DNA of 51,177 bases from a virus. Lineage: Duplodnaviria > Heunggongvirae > Uroviricota > Caudoviricetes. Position 1 is the first letter of the stretch. Each line of letters starts with the position of its first letter. The stretch lies in the IMG/VR virus record IMGVR_UViG_2579778634_000021. The stretch is one strand, 5' to 3'. The notes beneath the pieces are model-generated. The model was not told the DNA's origin. It was given only the letters and a program-made list of their open reading frames with translations, and did not search any database. Below are positions 18,044 to 35,112 of the stretch, in pieces. Both the position numbers and the translations under genes were made by a program.

Positions 18044-19072
18044 TTATTTCACCTGTACCACCACAAACTCATCCGGATCCGGCAGCACCATCAGCGGAGC
18101 GGACTGCGTCATGGTGAATTCACGGGCCGGATCGCCCACGGTCATCCAGTGTTTCGGATAACGGGAAGAGGCCACCACACCTTCGGACAACGCCTGCGCA
18201 TCCTGAATGGCACCATAGCAACGAATGCCCTCTGCTGCCGTATTCCCCAGGACCAGCGTGCCCTCCGGCAGATAACGTTTTTCGGTACCGTCCTCTGCCA
18301 CATAAGACGTTTTCGCCACCACAATGGCCAGATCGCCGTAATACCCCTTGAAGGACACCACCGCCCCCAGGTCTTTCACTGCCGTTTCGAGTTGTGAATT
18401 TGAGCCGCGACGGGTATCCAGTTTTTCGCGGAACAGCTTAAAGCCATTCAGCAGACGCCAGACCGTACCGTCCATAATGGCGATATTCACAAGGCCGCTG
18501 GCCTGATCGCAGTAGAGGTCAATATCATGCGTCGGATCAAACGTATCACGGTCCTGCTCAGACCATTTTTTACCGTCAGCCTGCTCAATGTTATTTCCTT
18601 CAGAGCGCCCGAAATCCACCTCGACAGTATCAAACTGATCCCCTTCCATGGTGTATTTGCCATACAGCACGGCATTCACCGCCTGCATTTCTTCCACCTG
18701 GACAATGGCGTGCTCTTCCTGTTTGAGGTTATCGGTAATGATACGCAGACGACGGTAGGCCGGGTCGTTCAGCTGAGCCGGATCTTCACCAGGAAGGCGC
18801 TCAACCGCCTGCTGGTAATTAAATTCGTGTTTGGGCTTGACGTAGCCCGGACGTAACACGCGGGTTTCACCACCGCGATGGCGAAGCACTTTTCCTTCAA
18901 CGATCGGGGAGACATAGGCCGCCACCGGCGTTTTTCCGGTAATTTTGTCCAGCATCACCTCTTCGGTGTGGAAATTCACCGTACGGCGGAAAAACAGCTC
19001 CAGAAACAGCGCACGGAATTTCACTTTTTGTTCGGTATAACCGAGTAACTGGCGGGTCGTAAACAATCCCAT
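18044..19072 (-). CDS. E: major capsid protein E
   Basis: 342-aa ORF, lambda E-like throughout. Confidence 0.95.
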   Translation of the reverse strand: MGLFTTRQLLGYTEQKVKFRALFLELFFRRTVNFHTEEVMLDKITGKTPVAAYVSPIVEGKVLRHRGGETRVLRPGYVKPKHEFNYQQAVERLPGEDPAQLNDPAYRRLRIITDNLKQEEHAIVQVEEMQAVNAVLYGKYTMEGDQFDTVEVDFGRSEGNNIEQADGKKWSEQDRDTFDPTHDIDLYCDQASGLVNIAIMDGTVWRLLNGFKLFREKLDTRRGSNSQLETAVKDLGAVVSFKGYYGDLAIVVAKTSYVAEDGTEKRYLPEGTLVLGNTAAEGIRCYGAIQDAQALSEGVVASSRYPKHWMTVGDPAREFTMTQSAPLMVLPDPDEFVVVQVK

Positions 19073-19129: not shown

Positions 19130-19477
19130 TTACGGCAGCGCCGCGTGACTCAGGGCTGTGCCGACAAAGGCGTTGGCCTTTTTGTGTTCATCCACACTGT
19201 CAGGCCAGCGGATTGCCTCCGTCGCAAAGGTCCCCGACTTGTAATACGTCAGCACCGTCTCTGTGCCTTCAAGCGGCAGTACCAGTATGCCAGCCGCACT
19301 ACCGGCTTTCTGTCCATCCCAGACCACCAGTTTCCCGGTGGCTTCATCCAGCATCAGGGGCGTCAGAGCCGGTGTTGCAGAAGAAATCCCGCTGCTGCCT
19401 GTGGCGGTATGAGCCGGATCATTACCAGCAAAAATACGTACTTCCGCACGCTGTTCAGTGATGGTTTTCGTCACCAT
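19130..19477 (-). CDS. D: head decoration protein D
   Basis: 115-aa ORF, lambda D-like, upstream of E. Confidence 0.9.
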   Translation of the reverse strand: MVTKTITEQRAEVRIFAGNDPAHTATGSSGISSATPALTPLMLDEATGKLVVWDGQKAGSAAGILVLPLEGTETVLTYYKSGTFATEAIRWPDSVDEHKKANAFVGTALSHAALP

Positions 19478-19513: not shown

Positions 19514-21019
19514 TCATGGCATGGCCATGAGCATTTTCACGTCCGCATCACCGTCTGCTGACGTCTGTGACACGCCACCCCGCACCGCTGCCGGTGAATG
19601 ATTCGCCATGAAATGTTCAAACAGGGCGGTTGTGGATGCAGAGACCGGTTCGGCCTTACCTGATCCCGCAGCCAGCACAGCCCGGGCGTTCTCCACGGTC
19701 ATTCCCGGGCAGGCCGCCAGTTTTTCAGCCTGCGCCTCAGCCCCTTTTGCCTCATCCAGGGCCATGATCTGATCACGAAGTGAGGGCCCGGCATCCGCCA
19801 GTGGTGCAGCCGCCAGGATCGGGCGGGCTTTTTCCACCGTCATCTCCGGCATCGCCGCCAGCGTTGCCGCCAGTTGTTCACGACCGTTCGCTTCTTCACA
19901 CGCCATAATGCGATCGGCTTCACTCTGCGCGGATGCCACCGGCTGCTGCGGTGCCGCCGCGGCCAGAATCGCCCGGGCCTGTTCAACGCTCATGCCCTGT
20001 TGTCCTGCCAGCATCGTGGCAAGCTGTTCACGTCCCTTCGCTTCCTGACACGTCAGGATCCCCATCACTCGCTGGTTCTCCTGCGCGGCAGCTTCCGTTG
20101 CAGTTAATTGCGGCATAGTGCCTCCTGTATCATGAGTGTTCAGCGCCGCAGCCATCACACTGATGGCATCCGACGCATTGATTAATTCATCCGCCAGCCC
20201 GGCCTCAATGCCGGACTGACCTTCAAAAACGGCGGCCTCTGTTCCCGTGACTGCATCAACAGACAGACCGGTATACATCGCCACTTTTTCGGCAAACATC
20301 CGGCGCGCCGCATCAATCCGCTGCTGCATGTCCTGGCGAACCTCTTCCGGCAACGCTTCAAACTGATTGCCATCCACCTTGTGCGCCCCTGAGTAAATCA
20401 GCGTGATATCCACACCGGCCTGCGCCAGATGACCGGCATAGCTGACATGGCTCATCATCACGCCAATGGAGCCGATACGGGATGTCTGGGTAACCAGCTG
20501 TCGGGAGCAGGCCGACGCCAGCAGCATGGCTGCAGAACAGGCCGTGTGATTGCACAGTGCCCAGACCGGCTTCTGCTGACGGAGGCGGTAAATCATGTCA
20601 GCACAGTCAAACGCACCGGCGGCCTGCCCGCCCGGACTGTCAATGTCCAGCAGTACACCCCGCACCTGGCTATCCGCCATTGCCTGCTGAAGACAGGCGA
20701 CAATGCCGTCATAGCCTGTCATTCCGGAAAATGGCCGCATACCCCCCAGCCGGTGCACCAGCGTGCCTGTCACCGGCAGTACAGCAATACCGTTCACCAC
20801 CCGGTAAACACGGGCCGGTCGTTTACCTCCGGCCATGTACTCGTCCGTTTCAGCCAGCATTCCGGGTGCATCAAGCTGTACCTGCTGTTGTGGTACCGAA
20901 AGACTTGCTGCCCCCATCTCGCGCCCGAGCGCGCAAAAGAAAACCCGCGCATAGGCGGGCTCCAGAAGCAGCGGTTCATTGAATGCTGCTGCAATAATGT
21001 GTGAAAGATTACGTCTCAC
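19514..21019 (-). CDS. C: head maturation protease C (S49 family) with a C-terminal Nu3-type scaffold region
   Basis: 501-aa ORF. N-terminal S49/ClpP-like peptidase region, and a C-terminal part with three tandem repeats of about 45 aa. Confidence 0.85.
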   Translation of the reverse strand: MRRNLSHIIAAAFNEPLLLEPAYARVFFCALGREMGAASLSVPQQQVQLDAPGMLAETDEYMAGGKRPARVYRVVNGIAVLPVTGTLVHRLGGMRPFSGMTGYDGIVACLQQAMADSQVRGVLLDIDSPGGQAAGAFDCADMIYRLRQQKPVWALCNHTACSAAMLLASACSRQLVTQTSRIGSIGVMMSHVSYAGHLAQAGVDITLIYSGAHKVDGNQFEALPEEVRQDMQQRIDAARRMFAEKVAMYTGLSVDAVTGTEAAVFEGQSGIEAGLADELINASDAISVMAAALNTHDTGGTMPQLTATEAAAQENQRVMGILTCQEAKGREQLATMLAGQQGMSVEQARAILAAAAPQQPVASAQSEADRIMACEEANGREQLAATLAAMPEMTVEKARPILAAAPLADAGPSLRDQIMALDEAKGAEAQAEKLAACPGMTVENARAVLAAGSGKAEPVSASTTALFEHFMANHSPAAVRGGVSQTSADGDADVKMLMAMP

Positions 21020-22601
21020 GTGGTGTTGTCTCCTCTTCCGGCCTGCGACTCTCCGCTATCTGCTGCTGATACGCCTGCGCTATCCACACCGGACGTGAGA
21101 GTCCGGCTTTTTCCCGCTCTGCAGATTCCCTGACCTGCTGGCGGAAAATGTCCTGATAATCCTCGCCCATCAGCGCCAGCTCTTTCTCATACGTGCTCAG
21201 TCCGGCCTCAATGCGCATCACTGATTCCTGAACCTCCTTGAGCCCGTCAATGGCCATTCTTCCGGCTCCAATCCACTCAGCCCGTGACCAGGCTGATCGC
21301 GCCTGATAAAAATCAAAACGTGCCCGTGGCGGACGAATAATCCCCCGAAGAAGTGCCTCTTCCAGCCAGCAGGAAAACATCTGCGTGGCCAGCCGGGACG
21401 CAATAAATTTTCGCCGCCCCATAAAATAGCGCCACGACTCATTGGCGGATGCGCGGGCACTTGAATAACTGACCTTCGAGTAATCACGGGACAACTGTTC
21501 GTAGGAAACGCCAAGACCGGCGGCGATATACCGCAGCAGCGCCTGTTCAAGCGCCGAAAATCCATTGTCTGAATCCTGCGCGGTCTGAAGTTTCAGATCA
21601 TCACCGGGGAAAAGGTGCGGAATTTTGACACCGCCCAGCGTCACGCTATTCGTGTCATACCAGGTGGAGAACTTATCCAGAATATTAATAAGCGGATTAT
21701 CCTTCTGCCCCTGCGGCGCACCGGCGATATATTCAAAGGCCTTTTCGGTATCAAGTTCACTTTCAATCGTCGCTGCATACATGGCTTTAACAATGGCCGA
21801 CTGAAGCTGTGTTGCCTGCAGGGAATCGAGCATCTTCAGCCGTTCCATGACGCTGTAAAACTGATTGGCCCCACGGGTCTGCCCGTCCTCCACCGGCTCG
21901 AAAATATGCAGCATGGCCGGACGCCCGGTGGGAAGTTCACGCGGGATCCGTTCCCATCGTCCACTCCCGGAGCGAGGAAAATCATCCTCACAGATATGGT
22001 ACGCAACGGCACGGCCATATCGATCAACCTCCACACCGGCCCGCAGAAAACGGTTCCCGATACCGTGTCCTGGCGTGTCCACCCGTTTCGGACTCACGGC
22101 TTTAAAACGCGTACGAAACAGTTGCGTGCTCTCCGTATCCCAGACCGGCTGCACAAAGATTTCGCCGTTAAACGCATGAACGCCCACACCTTCACGGATA
22201 AATTCCGTAAACGTGCGTTTCCCTTCCACGTCGATCTCACCAAACATCCCTTCTGCGTATTCTGACCAGGCCGCCTCCACCTCATCGACAAAACTTTTTG
22301 CCGCGGTCTCCCGCATCCCCAGCCAGCGCCAGTTCGGACGGTAGCTAATCAGAAACATATGCCCGACAATGTGATCCTTATGCAGGGCCACCGCATTGGC
22401 CGCTATTCCGTTATTGCGCACCAGATCATCTGCACGGGCATTCCCCAGACGCAACGCGGGCAGCAGGGCCGCATCGGCACTCTGCGAGGGTGGCAACCAC
22501 TCTGCCATTTGCCCGCCAAATCCTGCGCCGCCCCCGTTGTAGCTTAGGCTCTCCCGAAGCGGAACGCCGTTCACATCAATCAGGACAGGCGTTCGTTTCA
22601 T
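21009..22601 (-). CDS. B: portal protein B
   Basis: 530-aa ORF, lambda B-like. Confidence 0.95.
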   Translation of the reverse strand: MKRTPVLIDVNGVPLRESLSYNGGGAGFGGQMAEWLPPSQSADAALLPALRLGNARADDLVRNNGIAANAVALHKDHIVGHMFLISYRPNWRWLGMRETAAKSFVDEVEAAWSEYAEGMFGEIDVEGKRTFTEFIREGVGVHAFNGEIFVQPVWDTESTQLFRTRFKAVSPKRVDTPGHGIGNRFLRAGVEVDRYGRAVAYHICEDDFPRSGSGRWERIPRELPTGRPAMLHIFEPVEDGQTRGANQFYSVMERLKMLDSLQATQLQSAIVKAMYAATIESELDTEKAFEYIAGAPQGQKDNPLINILDKFSTWYDTNSVTLGGVKIPHLFPGDDLKLQTAQDSDNGFSALEQALLRYIAAGLGVSYEQLSRDYSKVSYSSARASANESWRYFMGRRKFIASRLATQMFSCWLEEALLRGIIRPPRARFDFYQARSAWSRAEWIGAGRMAIDGLKEVQESVMRIEAGLSTYEKELALMGEDYQDIFRQQVRESAEREKAGLSRPVWIAQAYQQQIAESRRPEEETTPRET

Positions 22602-22804
22602 AACCTCACTCCCAGCGGACGACGGCGACGGCGGGTTGTCCCCAGTACCGACTCCGCATCATTGATCGCCCGGTTAAGCTCATCCAGAGAAGCTGCCGTA
22701 TATTCAATTCTGCGACCATCTTTCTGGACAGACACCACCCGTTTACCGGTTAATAAATCAAGGCGCGCCTGACGCAGCGCCTGCAGTTCAGCGACTGTAA
22801 CCAT
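22598..22804 (-). CDS. W: head-tail joining protein W
   Basis: 68-aa ORF, the same size as lambda W, between A and B. Confidence 0.85.
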   Translation of the reverse strand: MVTVAELQALRQARLDLLTGKRVVSVQKDGRRIEYTAASLDELNRAINDAESVLGTTRRRRRPLGVRL

Positions 22805-24716
22805 TCACTCCTCCGGACAGCTTCGCTGCCAGTTCTTTAAGGGTTGGCCGGGTCGTCTCTTCTTCCCGGGATTTTGCCAGTACAGCCAGATCAAGCTGCC
22901 AGCGTTGCACGGACACACGTAATGCCGCGTAGGCATACACCAGGCAGTCCAGCGCTTCGTTACGCCGCTTTTTGTTATCCCACAGCAGACGCATCTTTCC
23001 TTTTTCCCACTTCTCCACAAGCTCTTCCGCGACCAGTTGCTGCGCCTCTGTCTGCGAAAAAATCTCCGGATCATCAGGAAAACGGATGGCATACGACGTG
23101 GCTTCATCCGCAGGCGTGGGCTCGGCTTTCATACGGGCATAGAGAATTTCTTTTGCGGTGTCCGTCCCCACTTCACACAGATAAACGCCCCGCTGATTGC
23201 GGGTTTTTGGCATGGTGATCACCGGCTTGCCATAAACAGATGCACCTTTTACCGGCAGCACCCGGAAAACACCGTGTTTTTTTGACCTCTGATAGACAAT
23301 TTCGCCATCGATCCCCCCGGTGTCCCAGCAGACACGGGAAATGGTCATTTCGGTTCCGTCTGCATGGCGGTATTTTTTGTTGATCGCCACATCCACACGT
23401 AACAGCGTCTCTTCCTCATCGGGACGCCCCATAATGATGATTTTATCCACCAGAAAGGCTTCCTCTCCCGGAGCCCATCCCCAGACATACATCTCAAAAC
23501 GGTTTCGCTGCGAGTCAATGCCCGCCGTCAGATAAACCACCCGGGAAGGCACCGCAGCCGTGTAACGCACAACCTTATCCATCAGCACCTGGTGATCGAG
23601 TTTTTCACCCACGGCCTCTTCCCAGGTCTCGCCCAGCGTGGTGTTCACAAAGGTTTTCAGCCCGTTGGGATCTTTCAGTGCATCCAGCCAGTCATAGACA
23701 ATCTGTACCCAGGTGGTGAACGGACTGTACGCCGTCCAGATATGGAATGTGATGGAGCGCGGCGGCGGAATTTCATTATCCGCGGCGCTGAAAAACGTCA
23801 GGCCGTCACGGGTCCACATGCCCGTGTTTTCACAGATCCACCGCCCGTTGCTCTGGTCAAGCTCAGACTGATGGATCACGCAGCCATGATGTTCACAGAG
23901 GTAGAAAACGCTTTCGGGGCTGTCCTTCTCCCATTTAAGGCCAAAAGGCGTGGACTCATCGCCAAATTTCAGATACTGCGCCTCCCCACAGTGCGGGCAG
24001 GGCACATAAAAACGCATGAAATGCGCCGACTCGTTGGCCGCTTTTTCGATCTGGCAGGAGCCTTTTATTTTAGGCGTCGAGCCGCGAATGGATTTTGGCC
24101 ATACCGAGCCCTCAATACGCTTATCCCCCAGCAGGGTTGGCGAGCCCTCTTTTTCGACATCCGGCTCGAACGAGGAAAGTTCGTCATAGCAGACCACGTC
24201 CACGGATTTTTCACGGTAGTTTTTGGCGGCAGCGCCGCCCAGGCACCAGAAGCCCACACCCGATGAAAAGCGTTTCAGCGTGATGGTATTATCACGATGT
24301 TTACGTCCCAGCCAGGGAGAAAGTTTTTTCAGGCAGGGAACATCGCGAATCGTCGCCTCCACGTGAGACTTCATAAAATCTTCAGCGGCAGAATCCGTGG
24401 GCTGAAAAAGCAGACTGTTTCGGGATTTATGCTCAATAAAATACCCGGCGACTCCCAGCAACATCTTTGTATAGCCAACACGGGCAGATTTAATCAGATT
24501 AACAGTCCGGATCTGATCATTCCCCATGCTGTTCATGATGGCGATCTGGAACGGCAGCGTTTTCCATTCTCCCTCACCATATGAAGATTCTTTAGGCAGA
24601 TAATAATTTTGATCAGCCCATTCAACTGGCGTCACCGGCAATGCCCTTATCAGGGGCTGTAATGCTGTTGTGACAGCACTCATCATATTATTCAGTTGTT
24701 GCTCTGATATATTCAT
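22788..24716 (-). CDS. A: terminase large subunit A
   Basis: Start taken at MNISEQQ. Strong lambda gpA-like similarity along the whole length. Confidence 0.95.
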   Translation of the reverse strand: MNISEQQLNNMMSAVTTALQPLIRALPVTPVEWADQNYYLPKESSYGEGEWKTLPFQIAIMNSMGNDQIRTVNLIKSARVGYTKMLLGVAGYFIEHKSRNSLLFQPTDSAAEDFMKSHVEATIRDVPCLKKLSPWLGRKHRDNTITLKRFSSGVGFWCLGGAAAKNYREKSVDVVCYDELSSFEPDVEKEGSPTLLGDKRIEGSVWPKSIRGSTPKIKGSCQIEKAANESAHFMRFYVPCPHCGEAQYLKFGDESTPFGLKWEKDSPESVFYLCEHHGCVIHQSELDQSNGRWICENTGMWTRDGLTFFSAADNEIPPPRSITFHIWTAYSPFTTWVQIVYDWLDALKDPNGLKTFVNTTLGETWEEAVGEKLDHQVLMDKVVRYTAAVPSRVVYLTAGIDSQRNRFEMYVWGWAPGEEAFLVDKIIIMGRPDEEETLLRVDVAINKKYRHADGTEMTISRVCWDTGGIDGEIVYQRSKKHGVFRVLPVKGASVYGKPVITMPKTRNQRGVYLCEVGTDTAKEILYARMKAEPTPADEATSYAIRFPDDPEIFSQTEAQQLVAEELVEKWEKGKMRLLWDNKKRRNEALDCLVYAYAALRVSVQRWQLDLAVLAKSREEETTRPTLKELAAKLSGGVNGYSR

Positions 24717-25197
24717 CGAGTAAATCCGGTAATTTATCCCCCGCCCGCGCACACTGATTTGCCCCCTTCGCAATAAGGGTTTTCAGATGGTCAAGATGGC
24801 GCGGTGTTAAATCAGGAAACTGTCGCTGCATGGATAAAGGGATGGAATCAAGCGTACTGGATAACGCCATTGCCAGCTTGCTGAGGGCAAAAATACAGAA
24901 CCCGGTGTCAATAAGTTTTCCTTTTGACACCTCATTTTTTAACTGCTGTGTAACAGCCTGTTCTGCTGTCAGTTCCCATCTGGCAATAAGCAATTTCTCC
25001 TCATAGTCGTCTTCGCTATCGCCATCAGGCACATCGTTTTTACTTCTTCTCAGATACGATATGTAAAAATCGCGCCAGGCATCCAGATCCAGTTGCCCTC
25101 GCTTATTCGATATCGGGGCACCCGGCAATTTCTGCAATCTGCGAAGCTGGCGATCGGTCAGACTTAAATGCCTGGCAACTTCAGTCTGCGTAGCCAC
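24688..25197 (-). CDS. Nu1: terminase small subunit Nu1-like
   Basis: 169-aa ORF. The N-terminal region is compatible with a helix-turn-helix. The C-terminal half matches lambda Nu1. Overlaps the A start as in lambda. Confidence 0.85.
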   Translation of the reverse strand: MATQTEVARHLSLTDRQLRRLQKLPGAPISNKRGQLDLDAWRDFYISYLRRSKNDVPDGDSEDDYEEKLLIARWELTAEQAVTQQLKNEVSKGKLIDTGFCIFALSKLAMALSSTLDSIPLSMQRQFPDLTPRHLDHLKTLIAKGANQCARAGDKLPDLLDEYIRATTE

Positions 25198-25339
25198 TCC
25201 TCACCTCGCAAAAACTCTCACCTCACAATCACAACAAAACCGGTCATGTCCGGTTTTAGTGTCTATTTTTTGCGCATGTCCGGTTCATGGAAAGCATGTT
25301 TTTATATTTTTCATATGGTTAACTTGCAGAGAAACCGGA

Positions 25340-25392
25340 CATGGATCCCGGAAAATTTTCATAAATAGTGAAAATCCGCGAGGTCGCCGCCC
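25340..25392 (-). other. cos site (cosN cohesive end GGGCGGCGACCT at 25381..25392 on the minus strand)
   Basis: Plus strand reads cccggaaaattttcataaatagtgaaaatccgcgaggtcgccgccc, a near match to the reverse complement of the lambda left end. It lies 184 bp upstream of the Nu1 start. Confidence 0.9.
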
Positions 25393-25651
25393 CGTAACGG
25401 CCCGGATCGCCGGAAAGGACCCGGCAAAATGATAATGATTGTCAGTTGCAACAAAATCCAGTTTCTTCCACCATCGCACCGGACCAGCGACCATGAGGGG
25501 ACAACGCCGCGCTCCGTTAACGCGGTAAACCCCGGTGTGTATCGTTTTTGATTATCCCCGCACACTCTCGCAGAGGAGTCTCCCTGTCGGGCTGCGGTCT
25601 CTGTTAATGCAGGAATACGGCGACAATACCGCGCATGGATAATAAGGTCGC

Positions 25652-25876
25652 TCAACACACTGGCTGTAATGCAGCGGATACCATGCGGCATTTAGCGGCA
25701 TTCATCGTACACTCAACGGTTAGCTCTTCATTCGTGGCATTCACCTGAAAGGTCCGGGAGTGTAATTGCGTACATTTACCACTGAACGAACCTTCAACAA
25801 GAACACGACCACGCTGCAAAATACGGAACGGAATTGTTCCCTGAAAAGGCTTTACGGTTACCAGTAATTTCTTCAT
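25652..25876 (-). CDS. hypothetical small protein between Rz and cos
   Basis: 74-aa ORF with MKK start; no family recognised. Confidence 0.4.
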   Translation of the reverse strand: MKKLLVTVKPFQGTIPFRILQRGRVLVEGSFSGKCTQLHSRTFQVNATNEELTVECTMNAAKCRMVSAALQPVC

Positions 25877-25899
25877 ACATCCTCCGGATAATAAAAAGA

Positions 25900-26373
25900 C
25901 TACTTAATGCACTGAGTACGGATATATTCCTGCGCCCCTTCCAGTTGCTTCTGCATCGTCATCAGCCGCTCTCTGAGGGTGAAATAATCCCGTGTAACGG
26001 TGTCTGCCAGTCGGGGGCCGGTTGCATTATCCACGCGGGCGGTGCCGGTGGCTTCACGCACGGGACCTGGACAGGTGGCGTTGATACGCAGGCGCTTACG
26101 ACCAGCGGCAACGTCAGCGCGAAAAGTTTCATTTTCAGCTCTCGCATCAGCTAATTCCCTCGAGTATTTTGCATCGAGCGCAGCAACATCGCGCTGGCGC
26201 ACCTGCATATCAGTAATGGTTGCGTTCGCCAGCTTCAGTTCACTGGCTTTGTTATCGCGCTGCGCTTTGTAGGTAATCGCGTTATCACGGTAATGGTCTG
26301 TTGCCATCCACAGCGCTCCACAGGCCACCAGCAGAATAACGATAAACGCGGAAAGCATTCGGTTTATGTTCAC
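25900..26373 (-). CDS. Rz: i-spanin Rz
   Basis: 157 aa. N-terminal transmembrane segment and a coiled coil that matches lambda Rz ([14 protein letters not shown]...). Uses a GTG start overlapping the upstream stop. Confidence 0.9.
25962..26147 (-). CDS. Rz1: o-spanin Rz1 (embedded in Rz, +1 frame)
   Basis: 61-aa ORF with a lipobox (VVSAC) and the proline-rich motif [21 protein letters not shown], as in lambda Rz1. Confidence 0.85.
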
Positions 26374-26501
26374 CCCAGCAGCCCCGACGAAGACAACATC
26401 ATCCAGGCCATGGAAAGAAAAAGAGCAACCAGCATTAGTGAAAATGAAATGCCGACAATTACACAGAGGATCTTCGCCAGCGTTATGAGTTTGTCTGACA
26501 T
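26370..26501 (-). CDS. small single-pass membrane protein (lysis-cassette ORF)
   Basis: 43-aa ORF ([29 protein letters not shown]...) after a GGGAGG ribosome-binding site. Its TGA stop overlaps the Rz GTG start. Confidence 0.45.
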
Positions 26502-26515
26502 GCTTAATCCTCCCT

Positions 26516-26698
26516 TCACGATTTCAACGCAATGACCAGTTTTGCCAGCCCATACAGCATCGGGGACACAGCAACACCGACCGCCACCCACTTAATGGCA
26601 AAAGCCAGTGCTCTGCTGATGTCATCAGTTACAGGCGCTTTCAGTTCAAGGCCGTTTTTCATAGTCAACCTCAACAGAATTCGTTTATACTTTTCCAT
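26516..26698 (-). CDS. small membrane protein (lysis-cassette ORF)
   Basis: 60-aa ORF ([11 protein letters not shown]...) after an AAGGGAG ribosome-binding site, with a hydrophobic C-terminal helix. Confidence 0.45.
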
Positions 26699-26736
26699 GT
26701 TCTCCCTTGCCTTATCCAAGGTCAGAAACACAAAAC

Positions 26737-26766
26737 CCCGCTTGCAGCCAACAAACGGGGTTTTTA
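26737..26766. terminator. intrinsic terminator hairpin downstream of the endolysin gene
   Basis: Stem ccccg/cgggg flanked by U-rich runs on both strands. Confidence 0.5.
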
Positions 26767-26854
26767 CTTTTATTCACTTAGTTTTTGTCAGTTCGCAGGA
26801 TTTCGTGTTATCCGCCCGTGTGAGCAAACCGCATTTTTCAGCAAAATATTCTGC

Positions 26855-27388
26855 TTATCTGTCAATTCCCCAGCACGCCAGCGCACTCTCCTGGTCACGA
26901 CGGGATACCTGACCGTAACAGTTATTTGAGCGAATACGGCAGTCTCTGCCACCGTCCTTAATCCACCAGCGAATTTCAGCACATGCACCTTTCCGGTCTC
27001 CGGCGTTCAGTTTCCGGTAAAACGTTGAGGTGAAGCATTTCGAAGGCCCGATGTTGTACGGACAGAATGACGCGATGCCCGCTTTCTGCGGTTCAGTCAG
27101 TGGCAATTTGATGTTTTTCTCCACCCATGCCAGCGCCTTATCACGTTCAATGGCATTAACCTGAGCGCATTTTTCCTTCGACAACTTCATGCCCGGGACG
27201 ACAGGTTTGCCATCCACCATGATGGCACCACGGCAGATGGTCCAGATCCCCGCACCATCACGGTATGCCGTGGTGTGGTTACCTTCTTTTTCGTCAAGAA
27301 ACTGGTCGAGGATTTCAGGCGCAGAAGCACCTGTGGCAATCATCGCCAGAACGGCTACCGATAAACCATAGTGGAGTTTCCTGCTCAT
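26855..27388 (-). CDS. R: endolysin, lysozyme type with an N-terminal signal-anchor-release (SAR) domain
   Basis: 177 aa. Weakly hydrophobic N-terminal segment followed by a lysozyme-like catalytic region (EGNHTTAYRDGAGIWTICRG). Confidence 0.85.
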   Translation of the reverse strand: MSRKLHYGLSVAVLAMIATGASAPEILDQFLDEKEGNHTTAYRDGAGIWTICRGAIMVDGKPVVPGMKLSKEKCAQVNAIERDKALAWVEKNIKLPLTEPQKAGIASFCPYNIGPSKCFTSTFYRKLNAGDRKGACAEIRWWIKDGGRDCRIRSNNCYGQVSRRDQESALACWGIDR

Positions 27389-27392
27389 CAGC

Positions 27393-27608
27393 TTACTCTC
27401 CCCGCGCAGCTTTGCGCCGGTCTTCTTTAATCTTGAAATACAGATTCGTCAGGTATGTCAGGAACCCCAGACACAGGCTCCCCAAAACCCCGATAGCAGC
27501 CCACTGTGACGGAGTAACCTGATCCAACCACTGTAGAAACCAGTAACCCGCACTGCCCGCAGAAGTACCATAGGCTATGCCCGTTGATATTTTTTCCATC
27601 TGATACAT
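27393..27608 (-). CDS. S: class II pinholin (phage 21 S-like)
   Basis: 71 aa, near-identical by recall to S21, with the dual-start motif MYQMEK and two transmembrane helices. Confidence 0.9.
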
Positions 27609-27684
27609 ATCCCCGCCCCGACAGACCTGTGCTACCGGAAATAAAAAAGGCCATCAGTGTTTTACTGATGGCCCTGCCCCGCCG

Positions 27685-27975
27685 TTACAGCATTGTGCCC
27701 GGTTCGGGTTGTGTGTCTGTCATATCCGTCACCGGTGACTCCGGCTGAATATCACCATTTTCCGTGGTGACATCTTCCGCCTGTGGTTCCGGAAGCAGTT
27801 CCGGGGATGGTTCCGGCTGTGCACCAAGCAATTCATCCAGAATTGAATCCACTTCTGCATCAAGACGCTCTTCCAGATTCTGGCGGAGTTTTTGTTTCAG
27901 GACGCTTCTGACTTCTTCAGAGCGAATGACTTCCTTCACTGCCTCAGCAGTGACCAGTTGTTTTATATCTGTCAT
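27685..27975 (-). CDS. hypothetical acidic protein
   Basis: 96-aa ORF from MTDIKQLV, with a Glu/Pro-rich C-terminus. Confidence 0.4.
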   Translation of the reverse strand: MTDIKQLVTAEAVKEVIRSEEVRSVLKQKLRQNLEERLDAEVDSILDELLGAQPEPSPELLPEPQAEDVTTENGDIQPESPVTDMTDTQPEPGTML

Positions 27976-28000
27976 GAGATTTTCTCGTTGAAAGGGGTTA

Positions 28001-28195
28001 TTAAGAAGGTTGTTCCGGAATGAGTGGGGCTTCTGTTTTTGCTCCGGCTGACTGAGTGGCGCTGATTTTCTCAGCGGCCCTTTTGTCAATCTGTCTGCGC
28101 CAGAAGTCGCGTACTGCCCTGTATCCACCTGAAAGAAGATACAACACACAGACCACCGTACAGAAGTACAGCATTAACTGGTTGATGAATGTCAT
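28001..28195 (-). CDS. hypothetical small membrane protein
   Basis: 64-aa ORF with one N-terminal transmembrane helix. Confidence 0.4.
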   Translation of the reverse strand: MTFINQLMLYFCTVVCVLYLLSGGYRAVRDFWRRQIDKRAAEKISATQSAGAKTEAPLIPEQPS

Positions 28196-28336
28196 GGTTT
28201 ATTACCGTTACTGTTGACAATGAGAACTGTTTTCATTTAGAAATGATTGATGTCGAAAGCATCCTTTCGTTAGATTCTCCATTGGGATTACCTCCGCCAG
28301 TCTCCATTCCTGTTGCTGGCGGTTTTTTTTCGTCTG

Positions 28337-30310
28337 TTATGCTGCTACGGCATTCACACCAACAGTAAGACTTTCAATCAGCACAGGGTAAGTTGCCGCA
28401 TTTCCGGTAATATCCGTAATTGCCAGCGCGTTGGCCTCAAAGGCTGCATTCGTCCATCTGGTCAGCGTAAACGGTTTTCCTGCTGCATTATCAAGCACCG
28501 GCGTGACGTTCAGCGAGCCACCACCCGGGAAGCGGAAAGTCAGCGTGTGCCAGTCGTGATCGAACGGACCATAACTACCAAGCCGCTGTGATGTGGTGTT
28601 TGCATGATACATCACATTGATGTTTGTTTTATCAGTCTGCAGATAGAAGGCCGCAATATAACCCTCCTCTGATTCCGCTCCCGGCCATCCACTACCGCGC
28701 CAGTAAATACCCGCAGAATATTGATTTGCAGAAGCATTGAGAGATACATCATCGGGGATTTTAAAGCGCAGCGTGATTTCACCGCCGTTATCGAACAGCT
28801 CCTTCCCCTTACCGGCATCAATTGCGTGCGATACTTTCCAGGTCTTTTTCTGTGCAAGACCATTTTCTGGTTTTTCAAGACGAAGGGCTTTTTTACCTGA
28901 ACCACTGTCACTGACCAGCGTGTTTTTGACATCTGTCAGCGTCCAGCCCTGCGAAGCCAGAGCGGCATTTTCCGCATTCACATCATAAGCCAGCACTGAC
29001 TGTATCTTTGTCGGGACAACGGCTTCAGGCTGAGTATCGCCACTCTCCTGTGCTGGTTGCGATACGCCTCCGCCTGAAGAAACCGCGGCTTTTGTCACTT
29101 TCCCGGAAACAAAATCTGCCACTCTGCCCACATGCAGAAGAATGGCTGTTGCCAGACGGTCGGAAATAATTCCGCGACGCGCCCATGAACCAAAGTGGGT
29201 TTTACGATCGGATGTTGTCCAGCTCTTCGCATCCGTTCGTCCACCGGAACCATAATACCCGATAGCCGGAATATCCGGGTCTTCTGACGGTTCATTGGTC
29301 CCGACTTTCTGACCATTGTCATCCATCATAAACGGCACAAAGAAGATATTTTTACCGGCTTTGGTTTTGTATGCGCCATAGACGGCATCGTATTGCGCTG
29401 AATACGTCTCCTTCCAGTAGTACGTCGTGTCACCACAAATCCAGGGCACCAGAGAAGGAGAAGCACCAGCGCACTGACCGGATACTCCCGCCAGGTCAGA
29501 ACGGTATTTTTCCACCATGGCATCAAACATGGCGGGCTGACTGGCGTACGCTCCCTGTTTTAAATCAAACTCGCCCTGCATCCAGACAACACAAAGCAGT
29601 ATGTTTTTGGGGTTTGCCTTCAGCGCGGCCTGAGTGCGTGTCAGCAGGTCTTTATACAACGGCTTATCAACGCCCCATCGTTCAGATTTATCCGACGCTC
29701 CTGAACTTTCACTGAACGTTCCGTCAGCACCGGCTGTAAACGCAGAGCCACCACGACAGCACGGCACTAACAAAATACCCGCATTTTCCGGCATAAAGGG
29801 CAACAGCTTTTTGGCAATATGCAATCCCTGTCCGACACACCCATACTGCTCTGCGCTGGCTTTCGGATGAGAAAAACGGCTCAAATCCTGCACATCATGC
29901 AGGCAGTGGTCCGCCGGAATGATGTCGTTATATGCACAGGCCGCACCACCCGGTGTCACCGTACTGCGACGCGCCAGCTGTTTAATACGCGGGTCCGGAC
30001 GGTCATATGTCTCCGGCAGCGGCAGGCCTTCACCATACGCCATGCCGTTTGACTGTCCGGCCAGCGCAATGACAAAGTAATATTCTGGTTCAACAACAAC
30101 AGTCCGGGTACCATCTCCCCCCGGTGAAACTACCGGAGAGGTCATATCCCCTTCAGCGACTATAGCCTGGATAAATTCAGCACCATAACCCGCGTTTGAG
30201 ATAATCGGACTACCATAGGGTTGCCAGCCTTCCTTCAGTTTTTGCGTCAGTTTTCCTGCGAGGTCTGACGGCGATGATGCCCTGACCACGTCATAGTGTT
30301 TAAATGCCAT
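28337..30310 (-). CDS. nanS: prophage sialate O-acetylesterase-like protein (NanS-p type)
   Basis: About 657 aa from MAFKHYDVV. N-terminal domain typical of prophage NanS-p, a GQSN esterase motif, and the usual position between the Q region and the lysis cassette. Confidence 0.75.
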   Translation of the reverse strand: MAFKHYDVVRASSPSDLAGKLTQKLKEGWQPYGSPIISNAGYGAEFIQAIVAEGDMTSPVVSPGGDGTRTVVVEPEYYFVIALAGQSNGMAYGEGLPLPETYDRPDPRIKQLARRSTVTPGGAACAYNDIIPADHCLHDVQDLSRFSHPKASAEQYGCVGQGLHIAKKLLPFMPENAGILLVPCCRGGSAFTAGADGTFSESSGASDKSERWGVDKPLYKDLLTRTQAALKANPKNILLCVVWMQGEFDLKQGAYASQPAMFDAMVEKYRSDLAGVSGQCAGASPSLVPWICGDTTYYWKETYSAQYDAVYGAYKTKAGKNIFFVPFMMDDNGQKVGTNEPSEDPDIPAIGYYGSGGRTDAKSWTTSDRKTHFGSWARRGIISDRLATAILLHVGRVADFVSGKVTKAAVSSGGGVSQPAQESGDTQPEAVVPTKIQSVLAYDVNAENAALASQGWTLTDVKNTLVSDSGSGKKALRLEKPENGLAQKKTWKVSHAIDAGKGKELFDNGGEITLRFKIPDDVSLNASANQYSAGIYWRGSGWPGAESEEGYIAAFYLQTDKTNINVMYHANTTSQRLGSYGPFDHDWHTLTFRFPGGGSLNVTPVLDNAAGKPFTLTRWTNAAFEANALAITDITGNAATYPVLIESLTVGVNAVAA

Positions 30311-30513
30311 TATTCCTCCCGGCAGGGATAGTGTATGCAATCAAGATAAGGTGCGGGCTGACGTCAGTCATGGACAAGGGTTCAGAAACAGGAGGATGAC
30401 TACAGCCCGCAATACGAAAAAGACCATACAGTTGCGCAGAGTGATTACTGTCGGGTATTATTCGCCAGCTGAAAATTGATCACTTCACGTTTTGTTGTTT
30501 ATTCCTTGCCACC

Positions 30514-30570
30514 CGCGCTTCCCGGCGCGGGCTTTTTTTTATCCAACAAGAAAGCCCCTCCGGAGAGGGG
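30514..30570. terminator. two back-to-back terminator hairpins
   Basis: cccgcgc..gcgcggg followed by T8 (plus strand), then gcccctccggagaggggc with a U-rich run on the minus strand. Confidence 0.5.
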
Positions 30571-30800
30571 CTGGAGAGTAGCGCTATGTACCGTTCATGC
30601 ATGGTGCAGGGTGCCTCCCGGTGAGTTCAGTATCAGCACCTGAACCCGCACCAGAAAGGATAAGGGGTGTGACCAAACACCTGTCGCTGATATGCCCCTC
30701 CGCACAGGGGGATTCACCATGCCATATTTTTTTAACAAACTTCCCGCTGGCCAGACAATAATCGCCAGCCTGAATTGTGAGTAACGTGGCATTTTACGGG
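30545..30800 (-). repeat. repeat unit 1 (about 250 bp, begins with the hairpin aaagcccctccggagaggggct)
   Basis: Shares several long blocks with 31025..31285, for example catggtgc.gggtgcctcccggt and gggggattcacc...tttttaacaaa...gccagacaat. Confidence 0.6.
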
Positions 30801-31024
30801 AAAACTGTTTTCTGCAGTAAAAAGGCCCGCCGGAGCGAGCCTGGAAGGATAGCGGTCATGTGATGCCGGTTTCCCGGTAACTCAGCATCGGTATCTGAGT
30901 CAACGTTTTCTCTACTGGGTCATTTCCGATACGTTCCGCCTTCCGGCAGACTTTCATCACGTCAGAAAATATAGCACCCTGAGTAACAGGACAGTACTCA
31001 GAATTCAGGAAACTGTGACACATC

Positions 31025-31285
31025 CTGCACAGAAAAGCCCCTCCGGAGAGGGGCTGAAGTATAGCCTAATTTCTGTCTGTCGCATGGTGCCAGGTGCCTC
31101 CCGGTAAATTCAGCCTGGCTACTGAATTTGCATGTTCGCTGGATCATACACTTTGCCAGATGCCCCGCCGCTGAGGGGGATTCACCACGCGATGCAATTT
31201 TTAACAAATTCTCCGGCAGCCAGACAATCATCAAGCTGTGGAATTGTGAGGTATTTAAAAATTTCGCAGCCTCTTGCCACCCGCT
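31025..31285 (-). repeat. repeat unit 2
   Basis: Same block order as unit 1. A degenerate third copy lies between them at about 30821..30960. Confidence 0.6.
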
Positions 31286-31369
31286 TTTCACAAAAATCGT
31301 ATGTAGAAGGCCGCAGCGTAACTATCACTGATGAATTCAGGACACCCAGAGGCTACGGCTCAGTTTGGA

Positions 31370-31441
31370 TTGTGGCGGCCGGAATCGAACCAGCTCCCAT
31401 CGGTGCGCTGCCGATTACAATACGCGCGGCGATCCGCTACA
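31370..31441 (-). other. tRNA-like element (degenerate; possible tRNA remnant)
   Basis: Canonical T arm (GCUGG-UUCGAUU-CCGGC), a 5-bp anticodon stem and a 6/7-bp acceptor stem. There is no recognisable D arm, the anticodon loop is atypical (cagcgca), and no CCA is encoded. Confidence 0.3.
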
Positions 31442-31760
31442 TGACTAGTATTTTCACAGTCGCCTGTCTGCTAGCTCGCCATTGAGCTTCACCACAACGA
31501 TAAGAGCACTGCGCACACCTTTCACCAATTCCACGAGGTCTGCGGGTTCAATGCTCTTACCTGTTGTGCAAACAAAAAGCCCCGACATTTCTGCCGAGGC
31601 CTTTACCTAATCTAGCCAGTATGCCGATCCTAAATATTATCGACGACCGAGGTAAATCAGGATTTCTCTTTCGCTTCTCAGTGCGCTTTTGCTCCGAGCA
31701 TACACAAAACATACTACTTTCATTTCTCGAAAGCAACGCATTTACAAAAAATATTTTGCA

Positions 31761-32387
31761 TCATCTAGCAATCACTAGAAGTTCTTTCTCCAATTCTCGC
31801 TTCATTGCATAAAACATTTCTGAATCAAGGACCCTCTCGCACCACACGACCCGCCTCCGGCAATACTGAATATCAACTCCTGTTATCTGAGAAATCATCC
31901 TGGCGATATCTTGCGTGCTGTCGCGATTGCAATATCGCCTAATAGCTACATCACGGACAGGGCTTTCACGATGAAAGGTCTCAACCATCACACGTTCAAC
32001 GAAAGCAGCATCATCGGATTCTTTGGCGAGAGCAATGATATTACCTGCCGATGACTGAGGGATGACCAGTTCTCGGGCTTTCTGATGGAGTTCATCTCCA
32101 CGTAGTCCGTCTTCTTCATACAGACGCATGACAACAGACTCAATCTGCTTAGCTTTGTCATCGCTCCACTGACTGCGAATCATCAGTCGCCCAATAACGT
32201 TAATTGCACCACAAGGAGAATCATCACCAGCGTTAACATTTCCCCATACCTGTAGCATGTAGTGAACCCATGCTTTCTGACGAGAGTTAATGATTTTCTT
32301 CGGATGCCTCCATATGCGGCGGAAATGAGCATCATTAATAAAGTTAACCATGCCGAATACTGGGGTTAGCCGCATCACAGCCCCCAT
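31761..32387 (-). CDS. putative late-gene regulator in the Q position (Q-like by position only)
   Basis: 208-aa ORF immediately upstream of the terminator-rich region and the late genes. I could not match it to lambda Q. Confidence 0.4.
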   Translation of the reverse strand: MGAVMRLTPVFGMVNFINDAHFRRIWRHPKKIINSRQKAWVHYMLQVWGNVNAGDDSPCGAINVIGRLMIRSQWSDDKAKQIESVVMRLYEEDGLRGDELHQKARELVIPQSSAGNIIALAKESDDAAFVERVMVETFHRESPVRDVAIRRYCNRDSTQDIARMISQITGVDIQYCRRRVVWCERVLDSEMFYAMKRELEKELLVIAR

Positions 32388-32518
32388 CCTTTACAATGAC
32401 ACCACACTTCAAACATTCGTTTCACAACTTCACGGCAGTAGAAACCGTCAGCATCACATGTCAGGTCATAGCGATCTCCGTGCTTCAGTCTCATATAGCA
32501 TTCGAATAATCTGTTCAT
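32375..32518 (-). CDS. small Cys-containing protein (paralog of 49447..49584)
   Basis: 47-aa ORF MNRLFECYMRLKHGDRYDLTCDADGFYCREVVKRMFEVWCHCKGWGL, about 65% identical to the small ORF near xis. Confidence 0.45.
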   Translation of the reverse strand: MNRLFECYMRLKHGDRYDLTCDADGFYCREVVKRMFEVWCHCKGWGL

Positions 32519-32609
32519 ATACTCTTCGCCATGAACTCCGCTATTACGCTGCTCATGCGCTTTTCCAGACGACCTGAATAAAGCCATGCGTTCAGGCACC
32601 TGCTGAATA

Positions 32610-32810
32610 TCACGCATCAGTAGCTTTCCCCTTATCCCATCCACGATGAACCATAAGGACACCGTTGACGACGGCGTGCCGTTTGCCTTCTTTATCACCG
32701 ACATATTTTCTGACCGTAGCACGATTACAGTTCAGTTTTCGTGAAACTTCAGTCATATTGCCTCGTGCCTGGATAAGCAATTCCGGTATTGTTTGAATTG
32801 TGGCGTTCAT
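32610..32810 (-). CDS. ninH: NinH
   Basis: 66 aa, close to lambda NinH (TIPELLIQARGNMTEVSRKLNCNRATVRKYV). Confidence 0.85.
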   Translation of the reverse strand: MNATIQTIPELLIQARGNMTEVSRKLNCNRATVRKYVGDKEGKRHAVVNGVLMVHRGWDKGKATDA

Positions 32811-33169
32811 ATGTTCTCCAGTTCGGTGATTTTTATCCCCACTCTACCGCCAGGCACTTTCACGCCGCGAATTACGCGAATGTCATCGAATTGCTCGTCG
32901 TCTTCCGCAAATCCGGCGTGGATAAGAGAGTCGAGTAAACCTTTCAGGATGTTATCGAGGTCGCGACGGCGGGAATCTGGTGGTTCAGCAATAATTGTGA
33001 TGCGAAGTCGTGATTTAGTGAAAATGTCTAATCTGAGTTGCCGGATGATTTGCTGTACGTCTTTTCGGTATTTCTGGCCTTTATCGCTGATGTAGTACTG
33101 GCTTCCCCGTCTTCGCCAGTAGGTATTCACCGTCGGCGGCCAGGGAAGCACAAACTCATATTCATTCAT
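32807..33169 (-). CDS. rusA: Holliday junction resolvase RusA
   Basis: 120 aa with the RusA signature LPWPP...DxDN. Confidence 0.9.
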   Translation of the reverse strand: MNEYEFVLPWPPTVNTYWRRRGSQYYISDKGQKYRKDVQQIIRQLRLDIFTKSRLRITIIAEPPDSRRRDLDNILKGLLDSLIHAGFAEDDEQFDDIRVIRGVKVPGGRVGIKITELENI

Positions 33170-33459
33170 GACTTAATCTTCCCCTCCTTCAGCAATATCG
33201 CCAGCGTCCTGATCACGCCTTCCAGGTGGTAAAGTCTGGCGTCGTTGTTGTCGAGAATGCGAGTACGGCGATCGATTTCATTATGGCAGTCACTACAGGC
33301 CCATGCAGCCAACAGATCATCTGGCTTTGTTCCCGTTCCGCAAATTCCAGCCATTCGGTAATGCGCCAGAACTGTAGTTTCAGGGTTGCCATTGCATACG
33401 CCATAAATCCGTACCTGGCATTCTCTGCCGCGCGCTTCTTTGCGTAGGTTTGTCATCAT
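33166..33459 (-). CDS. YbcO-like phage protein (putative zinc-binding nuclease family)
   Basis: Matches my recollection of DLP12 YbcO (RKEARGRECQVRIYGVCNGNPETTVLAHYR...CSDCHNEIDRR). Start chosen at the internal Met. Confidence 0.7.
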   Translation of the reverse strand: MMTNLRKEARGRECQVRIYGVCNGNPETTVLAHYRMAGICGTGTKPDDLLAAWACSDCHNEIDRRTRILDNNDARLYHLEGVIRTLAILLKEGKIKS

Positions 33460-33479
33460 CTTATTCCTCATGCAGTAGG

Positions 33480-33671
33480 CTATCCGGAGTGACAATTAAA
33501 TCTTGCTCGACGCCTTAGCCACCGGATATCCCACAGGTGAGCCGTATAGTTGAAGGTTTTAACATCAGATTCTTTGGGGACTGGCCTGGGTTTATTTCGG
33601 GAGCGTTTGGTTGGAAGGTAATTGCAGTTTTCACAGACGATATCGGTGATGCTTCGTCGCTGTCGTCTCAT
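33480..33671 (-). CDS. ninE: NinE (copy 1)
   Basis: 63 aa, [30 protein letters not shown]..., near-identical to lambda NinE. Confidence 0.85.
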
Positions 33672-34078
33672 TCGTACCTCCTGTCGGTAAATCTGACACC
33701 CTGATCCACGGCCCAGGATGTTGTGTACTCAATCAGGCTTGCCATACGCTTCACGCTCATTTGCGCACTGCTTTCGCGGATATTGACGTATTCACCTTCA
33801 AGACCTGGCAAAACATCAGCTTCCTGTTTTGTCGCCACGGCATGACCGCTGATTAACAAAACTTTCCACTGTTCTGGTTTTAGCCACCTGCCGCACCACT
33901 TAACCTGGCGGGATATATCAGCGACCATCGCGTGAAATTTTGCATTTTGAGCGAGATTACGCTTGTAATCGGTGATACGGATCGTAACGGGTTTGTCTTT
34001 ATCGAGAGTTGTTGCAAGGATGGCGTTAATGGCGAATTGTTGCTGCTGCTTACTTCGGAGGAAGATAGTCTGGTTCAT
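33668..34078 (-). CDS. ninB: NinB recombination protein (copy 1)
   Basis: 136 aa, NinB/Orf family. Confidence 0.8.
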
Positions 34079-34132
34079 TATTCCCTCTCACTGGATTTTC
34101 CCAACAAAAAAGGAGCCGAAGCTCCTTTAGTT

Positions 34133-34834
34133 TCAGAATTCAAATTGTCTTGCCCGCAGGCTTTTCAGCATTGGCATGGCCCACTGGATAACGGAACTTG
34201 ACATGTCGAGACGTGTTACCTCCCTTAGTAGCGCGTCTCTGTTCTTCGTCACCATGTAGATAGTCTCAAACGCAATGTCATACAGCTTGTTCGTGTATGA
34301 GGAGTTCAGCTCTTTCATTATGGGGTACAGCTGCTTGCTAAGGTCCTGGGCTTTTTCCATCCAGAGTTGCATGTAGCAAAGGAGGATGATTTCCTCGGCT
34401 GTGAATTGTGGCTGAATCTGCGGCTGCTGTTCGGTTGGTGCTGTTTTTCCCTGGCTGAAATAGCAGTCTTCCAGTTTTTCGAACACTTCCCACGCCTGAT
34501 CGGTTTCGAGCATTTTTGCGTGACGGGCTGCGCCGCGTTCTGTCCAGAGGATGAGGGAGCGAACATTGCGGGCGATTTTCACAGAGTAACTTTCTGTTAC
34601 CTCGCGGCTAACAGACTCGCTTAAAGATAGTCTGTGCTTGAACTCACGTAGTTCATTCCCTTCCAACTTAAAGAAATGTTTTCCCTGTACAAATCGCGCA
34701 GAGTTACGGGAAAAATTCATTTTTATATTGACTGTTTCAGTGCCATACAATTGCGCCAATAATTCTGTAGTAATTACGGGGATCTGGTTGTAGGCAATTG
34801 GGGAAAGAGTTTCAACGGAAATTTGAGTCGCCAT
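34133..34834 (-). CDS. ORF6N-domain protein (antirepressor-like, putative DNA-binding)
   Basis: 233 aa. The N-terminal block VITTELLAQLYGTETVNIKMNFSRNSARFVQGKHFFKLEG fits the ORF6N pattern. Inserted between the two ninB-ninE copies. Confidence 0.6.
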   Translation of the reverse strand: MATQISVETLSPIAYNQIPVITTELLAQLYGTETVNIKMNFSRNSARFVQGKHFFKLEGNELREFKHRLSLSESVSREVTESYSVKIARNVRSLILWTERGAARHAKMLETDQAWEVFEKLEDCYFSQGKTAPTEQQPQIQPQFTAEEIILLCYMQLWMEKAQDLSKQLYPIMKELNSSYTNKLYDIAFETIYMVTKNRDALLREVTRLDMSSSVIQWAMPMLKSLRARQFEF

Positions 34835-35112
34835 GACAACGCCCTCTGGTTGATGAATTTAACTATCACCACCGTCAGGTGCAAATCTTTGGGTGGTGAG
34901 ACGTACAGGGTTTGCACTACCGGATCAACCAACCGGCGAGCCTTTCGGCTCCCCCATACGCCCCACCATAATTCAGATGTGCGTGTGCTTACGACAACAA
35001 AAAACACGCTCGCGGCGTGTGTCTGTCGCGGTTGAATATCCGGGGTGCAAATCCCGACGCCAGATTTTGCTGGCGCGTGAGGAATATAGCCCCGAATAAA
35101 TCATCACGTCAA

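Follow-up and report, generated by a model that had tools for sequence, protein, structure and literature searches.

In the window (the whole 51,177-nt stretch of viral DNA that was analyzed), a nanS-p gene is located on the minus strand between a regulatory leader and a lysis cassette. Read 5' to 3' on that strand, the order is ninH, a Q-like gene, a leader of 1.45 kb, nanS-p, DUF1378, DUF826, holin, lysozyme, and Rz, after which comes the lambda Nu1/gpA terminase (Table 1). The nanS-p ORF spans 28337..30340 and, in the list of open reading frames, its first possible start is a TTG at 30340. We rejected this codon since it is the ATG at 30310 that is preceded by a ribosome-binding site (GGAGG, five bases upstream), and since all the homologues that we aligned share the N terminus MAFKHYD. 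The same 1974-nt CDS is annotated by RefSeq in strain SCU-104, the corresponding protein (WP_000874521.1) being 100% identical to ours. An intact NanS-p gene is thus confirmed where the original prediction had placed a protein of roughly 657 aa.

The second element of that prediction, which placed the gene after a "terminator-rich late leader" and before the lysis cassette, is also correct, with the Q-like gene and terminators on one side and holin, lysozyme, and Rz on the other. Four strong minus-strand hairpins followed by U-tracts were folded in the leader, and the first of these, which is tR'-like, folds at -19.8 kcal/mol (z -3.3). All three tandem STnc100-type units close with a GC-rich hairpin and a U-tract. 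Since 22 terminator-like sites were counted, versus 5.5 +/- 2.5 when the 5.7-kb region was shuffled, "terminator-rich" is a fair description. The STnc100 units probably have promoters of their own, and low read-through could occur in lysogens. A simple scan of the minus strand between 27300 and 33000 detected no sigma-70-like site, but it missed pR' too and is therefore weak evidence.

As for the other features of the leader, neither the protein in the Q position nor the small leader ORFs matched a Pfam family, and a comparison of the Q-like protein with the PDB returned only noise. The tRNA-like stretch is considered only a relic because it scores below the Rfam gathering score and displays no blastn similarity to the ileZ-argN-argO genes of 933W; ARAGORN predicted no tRNA.

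Table 1. Coordinates of the features discussed in the text, in order of position in the window
Feature	Position	Strand	Basis
Lambda E-type major capsid protein	18044..19072	-	Pfam PF03864
Lambda gpD-type head decoration protein	19130..19477	-	Pfam PF02924
Rz spanin	25900..26373	-	Pfam
Rz1-like ORF embedded in Rz	25962-26147		ORF list
Endolysin (phage lysozyme)	26855..27388	-	Pfam
P21-type class II holin S	27393..27608	-	Pfam
DUF826 protein	27685..27975	-	Pfam
DUF1378 small protein, usual nanS-p neighbor	28001..28195	-	Pfam
nanS-p homologue, 657 aa + stop	28337..30310	-	ORF, RBS, Pfam, PDB, RefSeq identity
Lectin-like C-terminal domain, aa 438-657, DUF6645	28340..28999	-	6yp6 match, per-domain identities
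NanS-like SASA/SGNH esterase domain, aa 71-391	29138..30100	-	3pt5 alignment
His372 codon	29195-29197	-	
QGE 245-247 codons	29570-29578	-	
Catalytic Ser87 codon	30050-30052	-	
DUF1737 N-terminal domain, aa 1-54, variant A, loop AGYGAEF	30149..30310	-	Pfam, alignment
STnc100-type sRNA unit 3, terminator 30572-30553 at end	30542..30751	-	Rfam 129.9 bits
Degenerate STnc100-like unit 2, terminator 30842-30823 at end	30816..30991	-	Rfam 30 bits, E 2.8e-4
55-aa ORF overlapping STnc100-like unit 2	30856-31023		phrog_23557
STnc100-type sRNA unit 1, terminator 31055-31036 at end	31027..31220	-	Rfam 138.7 bits
tRNA-like relic with internal insertion	31370..31496	-	Rfam tRNA 26.5 bits vs gathering score 29
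First intrinsic terminator, tR'-like, 13-bp stem then U-tract	31566..31604 (hairpin 31604-31575)	-	Fold
Q-position late regulator, 204 aa	31761..32375	-	PHROG 753 "anti-termination protein Q-like", E 3e-68; directly downstream of ninH

Domain architecture and catalytic residues

The 657-aa protein consists of three domains, all scoring over the curated Pfam cutoffs: DUF1737 (aa 3-53, E 5.9e-17), SASA (PF03629, aa 83-274, E 1.4e-9, 38.3 bits versus a cutoff of 24.8), and DUF6645 (aa 508-618, E 5.7e-27). The central portion (aa 71-391) matches the chromosomal E. coli NanS/YjhS, whose structure is known (PDB 3pt5, E 3.3e-118, 399 bits over 321 aa), and the C-terminal portion (aa 438-653) matches the crystal structure of a NanS-p C-terminal domain (PDB 6yp6, E 3.3e-43). 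Moreover, PHROG 143 covers the full length of the product (E 9e-299); an NCBIfam search of the same protein returned no family. The profile search that had been proposed as a check of the domain assignment hence identifies a NanS-like SASA esterase, DUF1737 is the N-terminal domain that had been described as typical of prophage NanS-p, and the GQSN esterase motif is present at aa 85-88.

The SASA branch of the SGNH hydrolases is defined by three blocks: GQSN (Block I), which supplies the nucleophilic Ser together with the oxyanion Gln; (H)QGE (Block III), which positions that Gln and builds an inverted oxyanion hole; and a His in Block V. NanS itself has no Block V Asp (PMC9487903). The window protein exhibits all three blocks. 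Block I (G85-Q86-S87-N88) aligns with the GQSN of 3pt5, Block III, found in W-M-Q245-G246-E247-F-D, likewise aligns with its counterpart in 3pt5, and both are invariant across five homologues. The Block V residue is His372; its stretch, THFGSWARRG, pairs with SHFSSAARRG in 3pt5, His opposite His, and this residue is invariant as well. In the numbering of NanS, the catalytic pair is Ser19/His301. The two catalytic domains, which are ~70% identical, align end to end, with the same Ser and His and a shared lack of the Block V Asp. However, NanS belongs to the nan regulon and is exported as a single-domain protein, whereas the protein studied here is encoded among phage late genes and adds DUF1737 and a lectin-like domain. 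We found in it no signal peptide, hydrophobic N terminus, or membrane segment, the N terminus being polar and the highest Kyte-Doolittle(19) value 1.24. With no hydrophobic N terminus or membrane segment, NanS-p should stay in the cytoplasm until lysis.

The slot that carries stx in other phages

No toxin gene could be detected, as had been predicted. When the A and B subunits of Stx1c and Stx2a (933W) were used as tblastn queries against the whole window, only noise was obtained (best E 0.55). At the DNA level, nothing in the window resembles the stx operon, and the ORFs between the Q-like gene and nanS-p do not exceed 97 aa. The stxA and stxB genes that Stx-converting phages carry between Q and nanS-p are thus missing. 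It had also been proposed that nanS-p occupies here the slot where Stx phages carry stx followed by nanS-p, and the suggested comparison with Stx and non-Stx prophages reveals a homologous slot in both kinds. 933W, phi24B, and the Stx1c phage all show the succession Q, terminators, tRNAs, stxAB, nanS-p, DUF826, S, and R, and their DNA between stxB and nanS-p corresponds to an STnc100-like element (see also PMC12370729), which is multicopy in the window. The order from Q to lysis in the window matches that in these three phages and in strains 55989 and SCU-104. The slot has variable contents: a PP2C phosphatase, a Ser/Thr kinase, and tRNAs in 55989, TerB and DUF3927 in a second SCU-104 prophage, and a type I restriction-modification HsdM/HsdS pair in G1/2.

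The occurrence of nanS-p in non-Stx prophages has already been published (PMC10462455; bioRxiv 10.64898/2026.05.13.724894). For example, alleles from EDL933, O104:H4 C227-11, E2348/69, and many commensals reside in the same late slot with no toxin (PMC10462455; PMC8065619). The succession of pasD/STnc100, esterase, holin, and lysozyme has been called common, and <3% of such chromosomal loci are reported to adjoin stx (2026 preprint). For a lambda-like E. coli prophage with no Shiga toxin, the arrangement is therefore known and ordinary, and the window offers one more copy of a well-documented class, the identical protein being already in RefSeq.

Composition of the allele and of the prophage

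Relatives of the nanS-p and leader DNA are present in 3,030 of 5,426 complete E. coli genomes (~56%), in up to 11 places per genome. Copies with at least 99% identity were found in 19 genomes and in phage PhiR5_2. Among its nearest known counterparts are NanS-p of 933W (z1466 / L0105 / 933Wp42) and gp84 of phi24B (vb_24B_21), which exhibit the same DUF1737-SASA-lectin-like order, the same DUF1737 variant with Tyr42, the same slot between Q and DUF1378/DUF826/holin, and an STnc100-type element immediately upstream. However, the window protein is only 61% identical to phi24B gp84 and 58% to 933W L0105 (55% to the 55989 homologue), its linkers are unrelated to theirs, and it is preceded by neither stx nor intact tRNA genes.

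Taken domain by domain, the allele is a mosaic. Its DUF1737 (aa 1-54) is 81% identical to that of phi24B and 70% to a short-loop variant; its SASA domain is 72% identical to that of phi24B, but 86% to alleles from phages with lambda heads; its C-terminal domain is 45% identical to that of phi24B and at most 49% to that of any allele sampled. Within the sensitivity of megablast, this C-terminal variant occurs in 20 of the 5,426 complete genomes, in 27 places, all with at least 99% identity. The combination of an A-type DUF1737, a SASA domain close to lambda-head alleles, and a rare C-terminal variant sets this protein apart from other non-Stx alleles. As the C-terminal domain shares no more than 49% identity with the characterized one, substrate targeting could differ.

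The prophage is likewise a mosaic, with three sources. Positions 1-24634, encoding tails, heads, and terminase, share 97% identity with a lambda-type prophage from strain 55989. Positions 25909-34561, which extend from Rz through the nin genes, share 99.1% identity with PhiR5_2 and 98.5% with an SCU-104 prophage. The right arm as far as the integrase (49891-51177) shares 98.5% identity with another SCU-104 prophage, inserted beside mlrA, whose integrase resembles the one at the end of the present prophage. As one piece, positions 20000-31800 occur in no complete genome, the best match reaching 84% coverage at 94% identity.

The capsid is of the lambda E/D type, unlike the T=9 podovirus capsid of 933W and phi24B. 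The phi24B capsid protein belongs to PF13252 (N4-gp56-like), and the window encodes no cognate PF13252 major capsid protein: a BLASTP comparison of the two major capsid proteins gave E 0.048 over 43 aa, that is, no detectable similarity. The same nanS-p allele lies beside 933W-type heads in SCU-104 (whose capsid protein is 94% identical to that of phi24B), G1/2, PhiR5_2, and IMG/VR locus L015, and this holds for all other copies of the allele with a known head type. Our reading is that the Q-to-lysis block with nanS-p was moved by recombination next to a foreign head module.

Proposed function and alternatives

Taken together, these features suggest, with a probability that we put at about 0.8, that the product is a functional sialate 9-O-acetylesterase of the NanS-p type, and that its gene is an accessory one among the late genes of a lambdoid prophage lacking stx. 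This interpretation is supported by what is known of the characterized NanS-p enzymes, which are active esterases whose published function is the use of O-acetylated sialic acids, the host benefit named in the original prediction, z1466 being induced with the late genes (PMC8065619); multiple alleles support growth on Neu5,9Ac2 (PMC8065619; PMC10462455). In the mechanism that we propose, the late promoter would be the only source of nanS-p transcript, when the Q-like antiterminator permits read-through of the leader terminators. NanS-p would build up in the cytoplasm of induced cells and be freed by phage lysis. Once outside the cell, it could strip Neu5,9Ac2, whether free or bound to mucin, of its 9-O-acetyl group, aided by its lectin-like domain, and surviving sibling lysogens would then import and catabolize the Neu5Ac. 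NanS-p in this phage thus probably acts as a free, soluble protein released by lysis.

The role of DUF1737 has to be considered in light of a recent cryo-EM and proteomics study of phi24B (10.64898/2026.04.10.717836, a 2026 preprint), in which hexamers of the gp84 DUF1737 act as plugs in the central hexons of the T=9 capsid, binding being limited to the flat central hexons of this lattice. Tyr42 serves as the anchor, and cleavage after about residue 54-57 removes the remainder of the protein, with SSP motifs in the linkers proposed, as yet only proposed, to be self-processing sites (10.64898/2026.04.10.717836). Both Tyr42 and Gly54 are kept in the window protein, at the same positions as in gp84. 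SSP motifs are absent from both of its linkers: the first contains TSP (57) and VSP (61), the second neither. We classified the 26 IMG/VR loci with enough downstream sequence by DUF1737 variant and by head/terminase module. Variant A, with its AGYGAEF loop, occurs with six modules of the 933W type, one HK97-like, and one other; variant B, with a short ITPYTLMQ loop, with 10 of the lambda type and four HK97-like; variant C, with a YTDDGAAL loop, with four of a third type. That DUF1737 variants track the head module is only suggestive, in samples that are not independent (related prophages are repeated) and with variant B found on two head types. A scan of genome contigs gave only 16 loci, mostly chromosomal nanS, leaving the sample at this size. 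The window is an exception, with an A-type anchor beside lambda-type heads.

Could NanS-p then be primarily a component of the virion in this phage, with DUF1737 hexamers on lambda-type hexons displaying the esterase and lectin domains? Such a display would help the particle to bind or cross mucus, or to deacetylate surface glycans, with the benefit to the lysogen secondary. The docking seen for phi24B gp84 (10.64898/2026.04.10.717836), the high identity of the two DUF1737 domains with the retention of Tyr42 and Gly54, and the tracking of head modules by DUF1737 variants all argue for it. We nevertheless find it unlikely, because the E-type capsid protein (PF03864), accompanied by gpD, is unrelated in sequence to the PF13252 protein of phi24B, binding in phi24B is confined to one class of hexons in a T=9 lattice, the other copies of the allele reside on 933W-type heads wherever the head is known, and the SSP processing motifs are missing. 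A DUF1737 of the phi24B/933W type beside lambda E/D-type heads makes a free protein, released by lysis, the most likely form. Docking onto lambda-type hexons may still occur, as variant B is found with two head types. A more general possibility, which we regard as equally doubtful, is that DUF1737 is a generic plug for HK97-fold hexons that travels with the Q-lysis block, so that NanS-p would mount on lambda E/D-type heads as a portable mucus-targeting decoration. If so, the window would provide a test of this provided by nature, pairing a phi24B-type anchor with an unrelated capsid protein. The label "cargo" given to the gene in the original prediction may be incomplete, given that the DUF1737 of the phi24B homologue docks onto the capsid, although this capsid is of a type absent here. 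The value of the window is modest and is that of a natural recombinant, which brings together a capsid-docking type of domain, a lambda-type head, and a rare variant of the C-terminal carbohydrate-binding domain. It is a convenient construct to separate two roles of NanS-p, that of a public good released by lysis for lysogens and that of an enzyme displayed on virions.

Two other explanations appear less probable than those above. The esterase might act on bacterial glycans, either O-antigen or an O-acetylated polysialic acid capsule, and thereby aid adsorption of the progeny or alter the surface of the lysogen, a possibility that has been raised as open for NanS-p (PMC8065619) and with which the divergent, rare C-terminal carbohydrate-binding domain is compatible. 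However, the catalytic domain is close to that of NanS, whose best substrate is 9-O-acetyl Neu5Ac (PMC9487903), all the NanS-p tested deacetylate Neu5,9Ac2 and mucin glycans (PMC8065619), and a protein with no signal peptide would not reach the surface of an intact lysogen. It is equally hard to believe that nanS-p is a silent relic with no current function, kept by linkage alone in a decaying, non-inducible prophage. Some decay can indeed be seen: the upstream tRNA is degenerate, one STnc100 unit has decayed, and the same allele is frameshifted in PhiR5_2 (by 1 nt, after about residue 65) and in E. coli G1/2, and annotated as truncated in two further genomes. The frameshifted copies, in which a sequencing error is possible, fit an accessory gene. 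Against a relic, the ORF in the window is intact with all its catalytic residues, and the head, tail, lysis, Q, replication, immunity, and integrase modules look complete. Moreover, the allele is intact in seven of its eight IMG/VR copies and in most of those in genomes, with 99.7-100% identity.

Leader ahead of nanS-p

Close inspection of the minus-strand leader between the Q-position gene and nanS-p reveals an array of STnc100-type sRNA units, two of the three being strong and the third degenerate, the latter overlapping a conserved 55-aa ORF (phrog_23557). In contrast to Stx phages, which have only one STnc100 unit, located between stxB and nanS-p, the window carries three in tandem. Directly 3' of unit 3 lies a GC-rich hairpin whose stem has A8 ahead of it on the minus strand, equivalent to a trailing T8 on the plus strand. 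It would act as a terminator of plus-strand transcription heading towards the STnc100 units. Farther upstream in the leader, a tRNA-like sequence occupies the position of ileZ-argN-argO in Stx phages. Its T-arm and acceptor end look intact, but the sequence carries an internal insertion of approximately 55 nt; ARAGORN called no tRNA there, and blastn against the Stx-phage ileZ-argN-argO sequences detected no similarity.

Features in the window and in other loci
Feature	Location	Strand	Remark
IS009 sRNA match	window 1378-1576	-	inside tail-fibre-assembly region
GC-rich hairpin	window 30511-30532
Three tandem STnc100-type sRNA units	window 30542-31220	-	directly upstream of nanS-p
tRNA-like sequence	window 31370-31496	-	Rfam score below threshold
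Q-position protein gene	window 31761-32375	-	sole match PHROG 753 'Q-like'
ORF just upstream of Q-position gene	window 32375-32722		N-terminal resemblance to 933W Q
233-aa ORF	window 34133-34834
C4 antisense RNA and isrK, adjacent matches	window 34889-35076	-	Rfam
Lambda cIII thermoregulator element	window 42913-42971	+	in early left operon
HsdM/HsdS pair, type I restriction-modification	L089 15581-18696 (E. coli G1/2)		Q-to-nanS-p slot
PP2C phosphatase and Ser/Thr kinase	L004 44983-46487 (E. coli 55989)		Q-to-nanS-p slot
Split nanS-p	L001 7037-9011 (phage PhiR5_2)
Match to window NanS-p	L101 10001-11143 (Leptothrix discophora)

Q position and upstream region

The Q-position protein belongs to no Pfam family and has no relative among solved structures. 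Its gene is preceded by an ORF whose first ~30 aa resemble the N terminus of Q from 933W (E 1e-4); this ORF may be the remnant of a displaced Q gene. The C4/isrK pair sits just ahead of the 233-aa ORF, and together they resemble an antisense-controlled antirepressor module of the P1/P7 type.

Variable cargo and relatives of nanS-p

The Q-to-nanS-p slot behaves as a cargo hotspot; its content varies among the prophages of G1/2, 55989 and SCU-104, the last of which carries TerB. In PhiR5_2, nanS-p itself is split by a 1-nt insertion, which would produce a stand-alone DUF1737 peptide (about 65 aa plus 8 aa), apart from the esterase. Either a sequencing error or a natural separation of anchor and enzyme could account for this insertion. 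The L. discophora match, which spans residues 25-390 of the window NanS-p protein with 36% identity, suggests that a DUF1737-SASA fusion occurs far outside Enterobacteriaceae.
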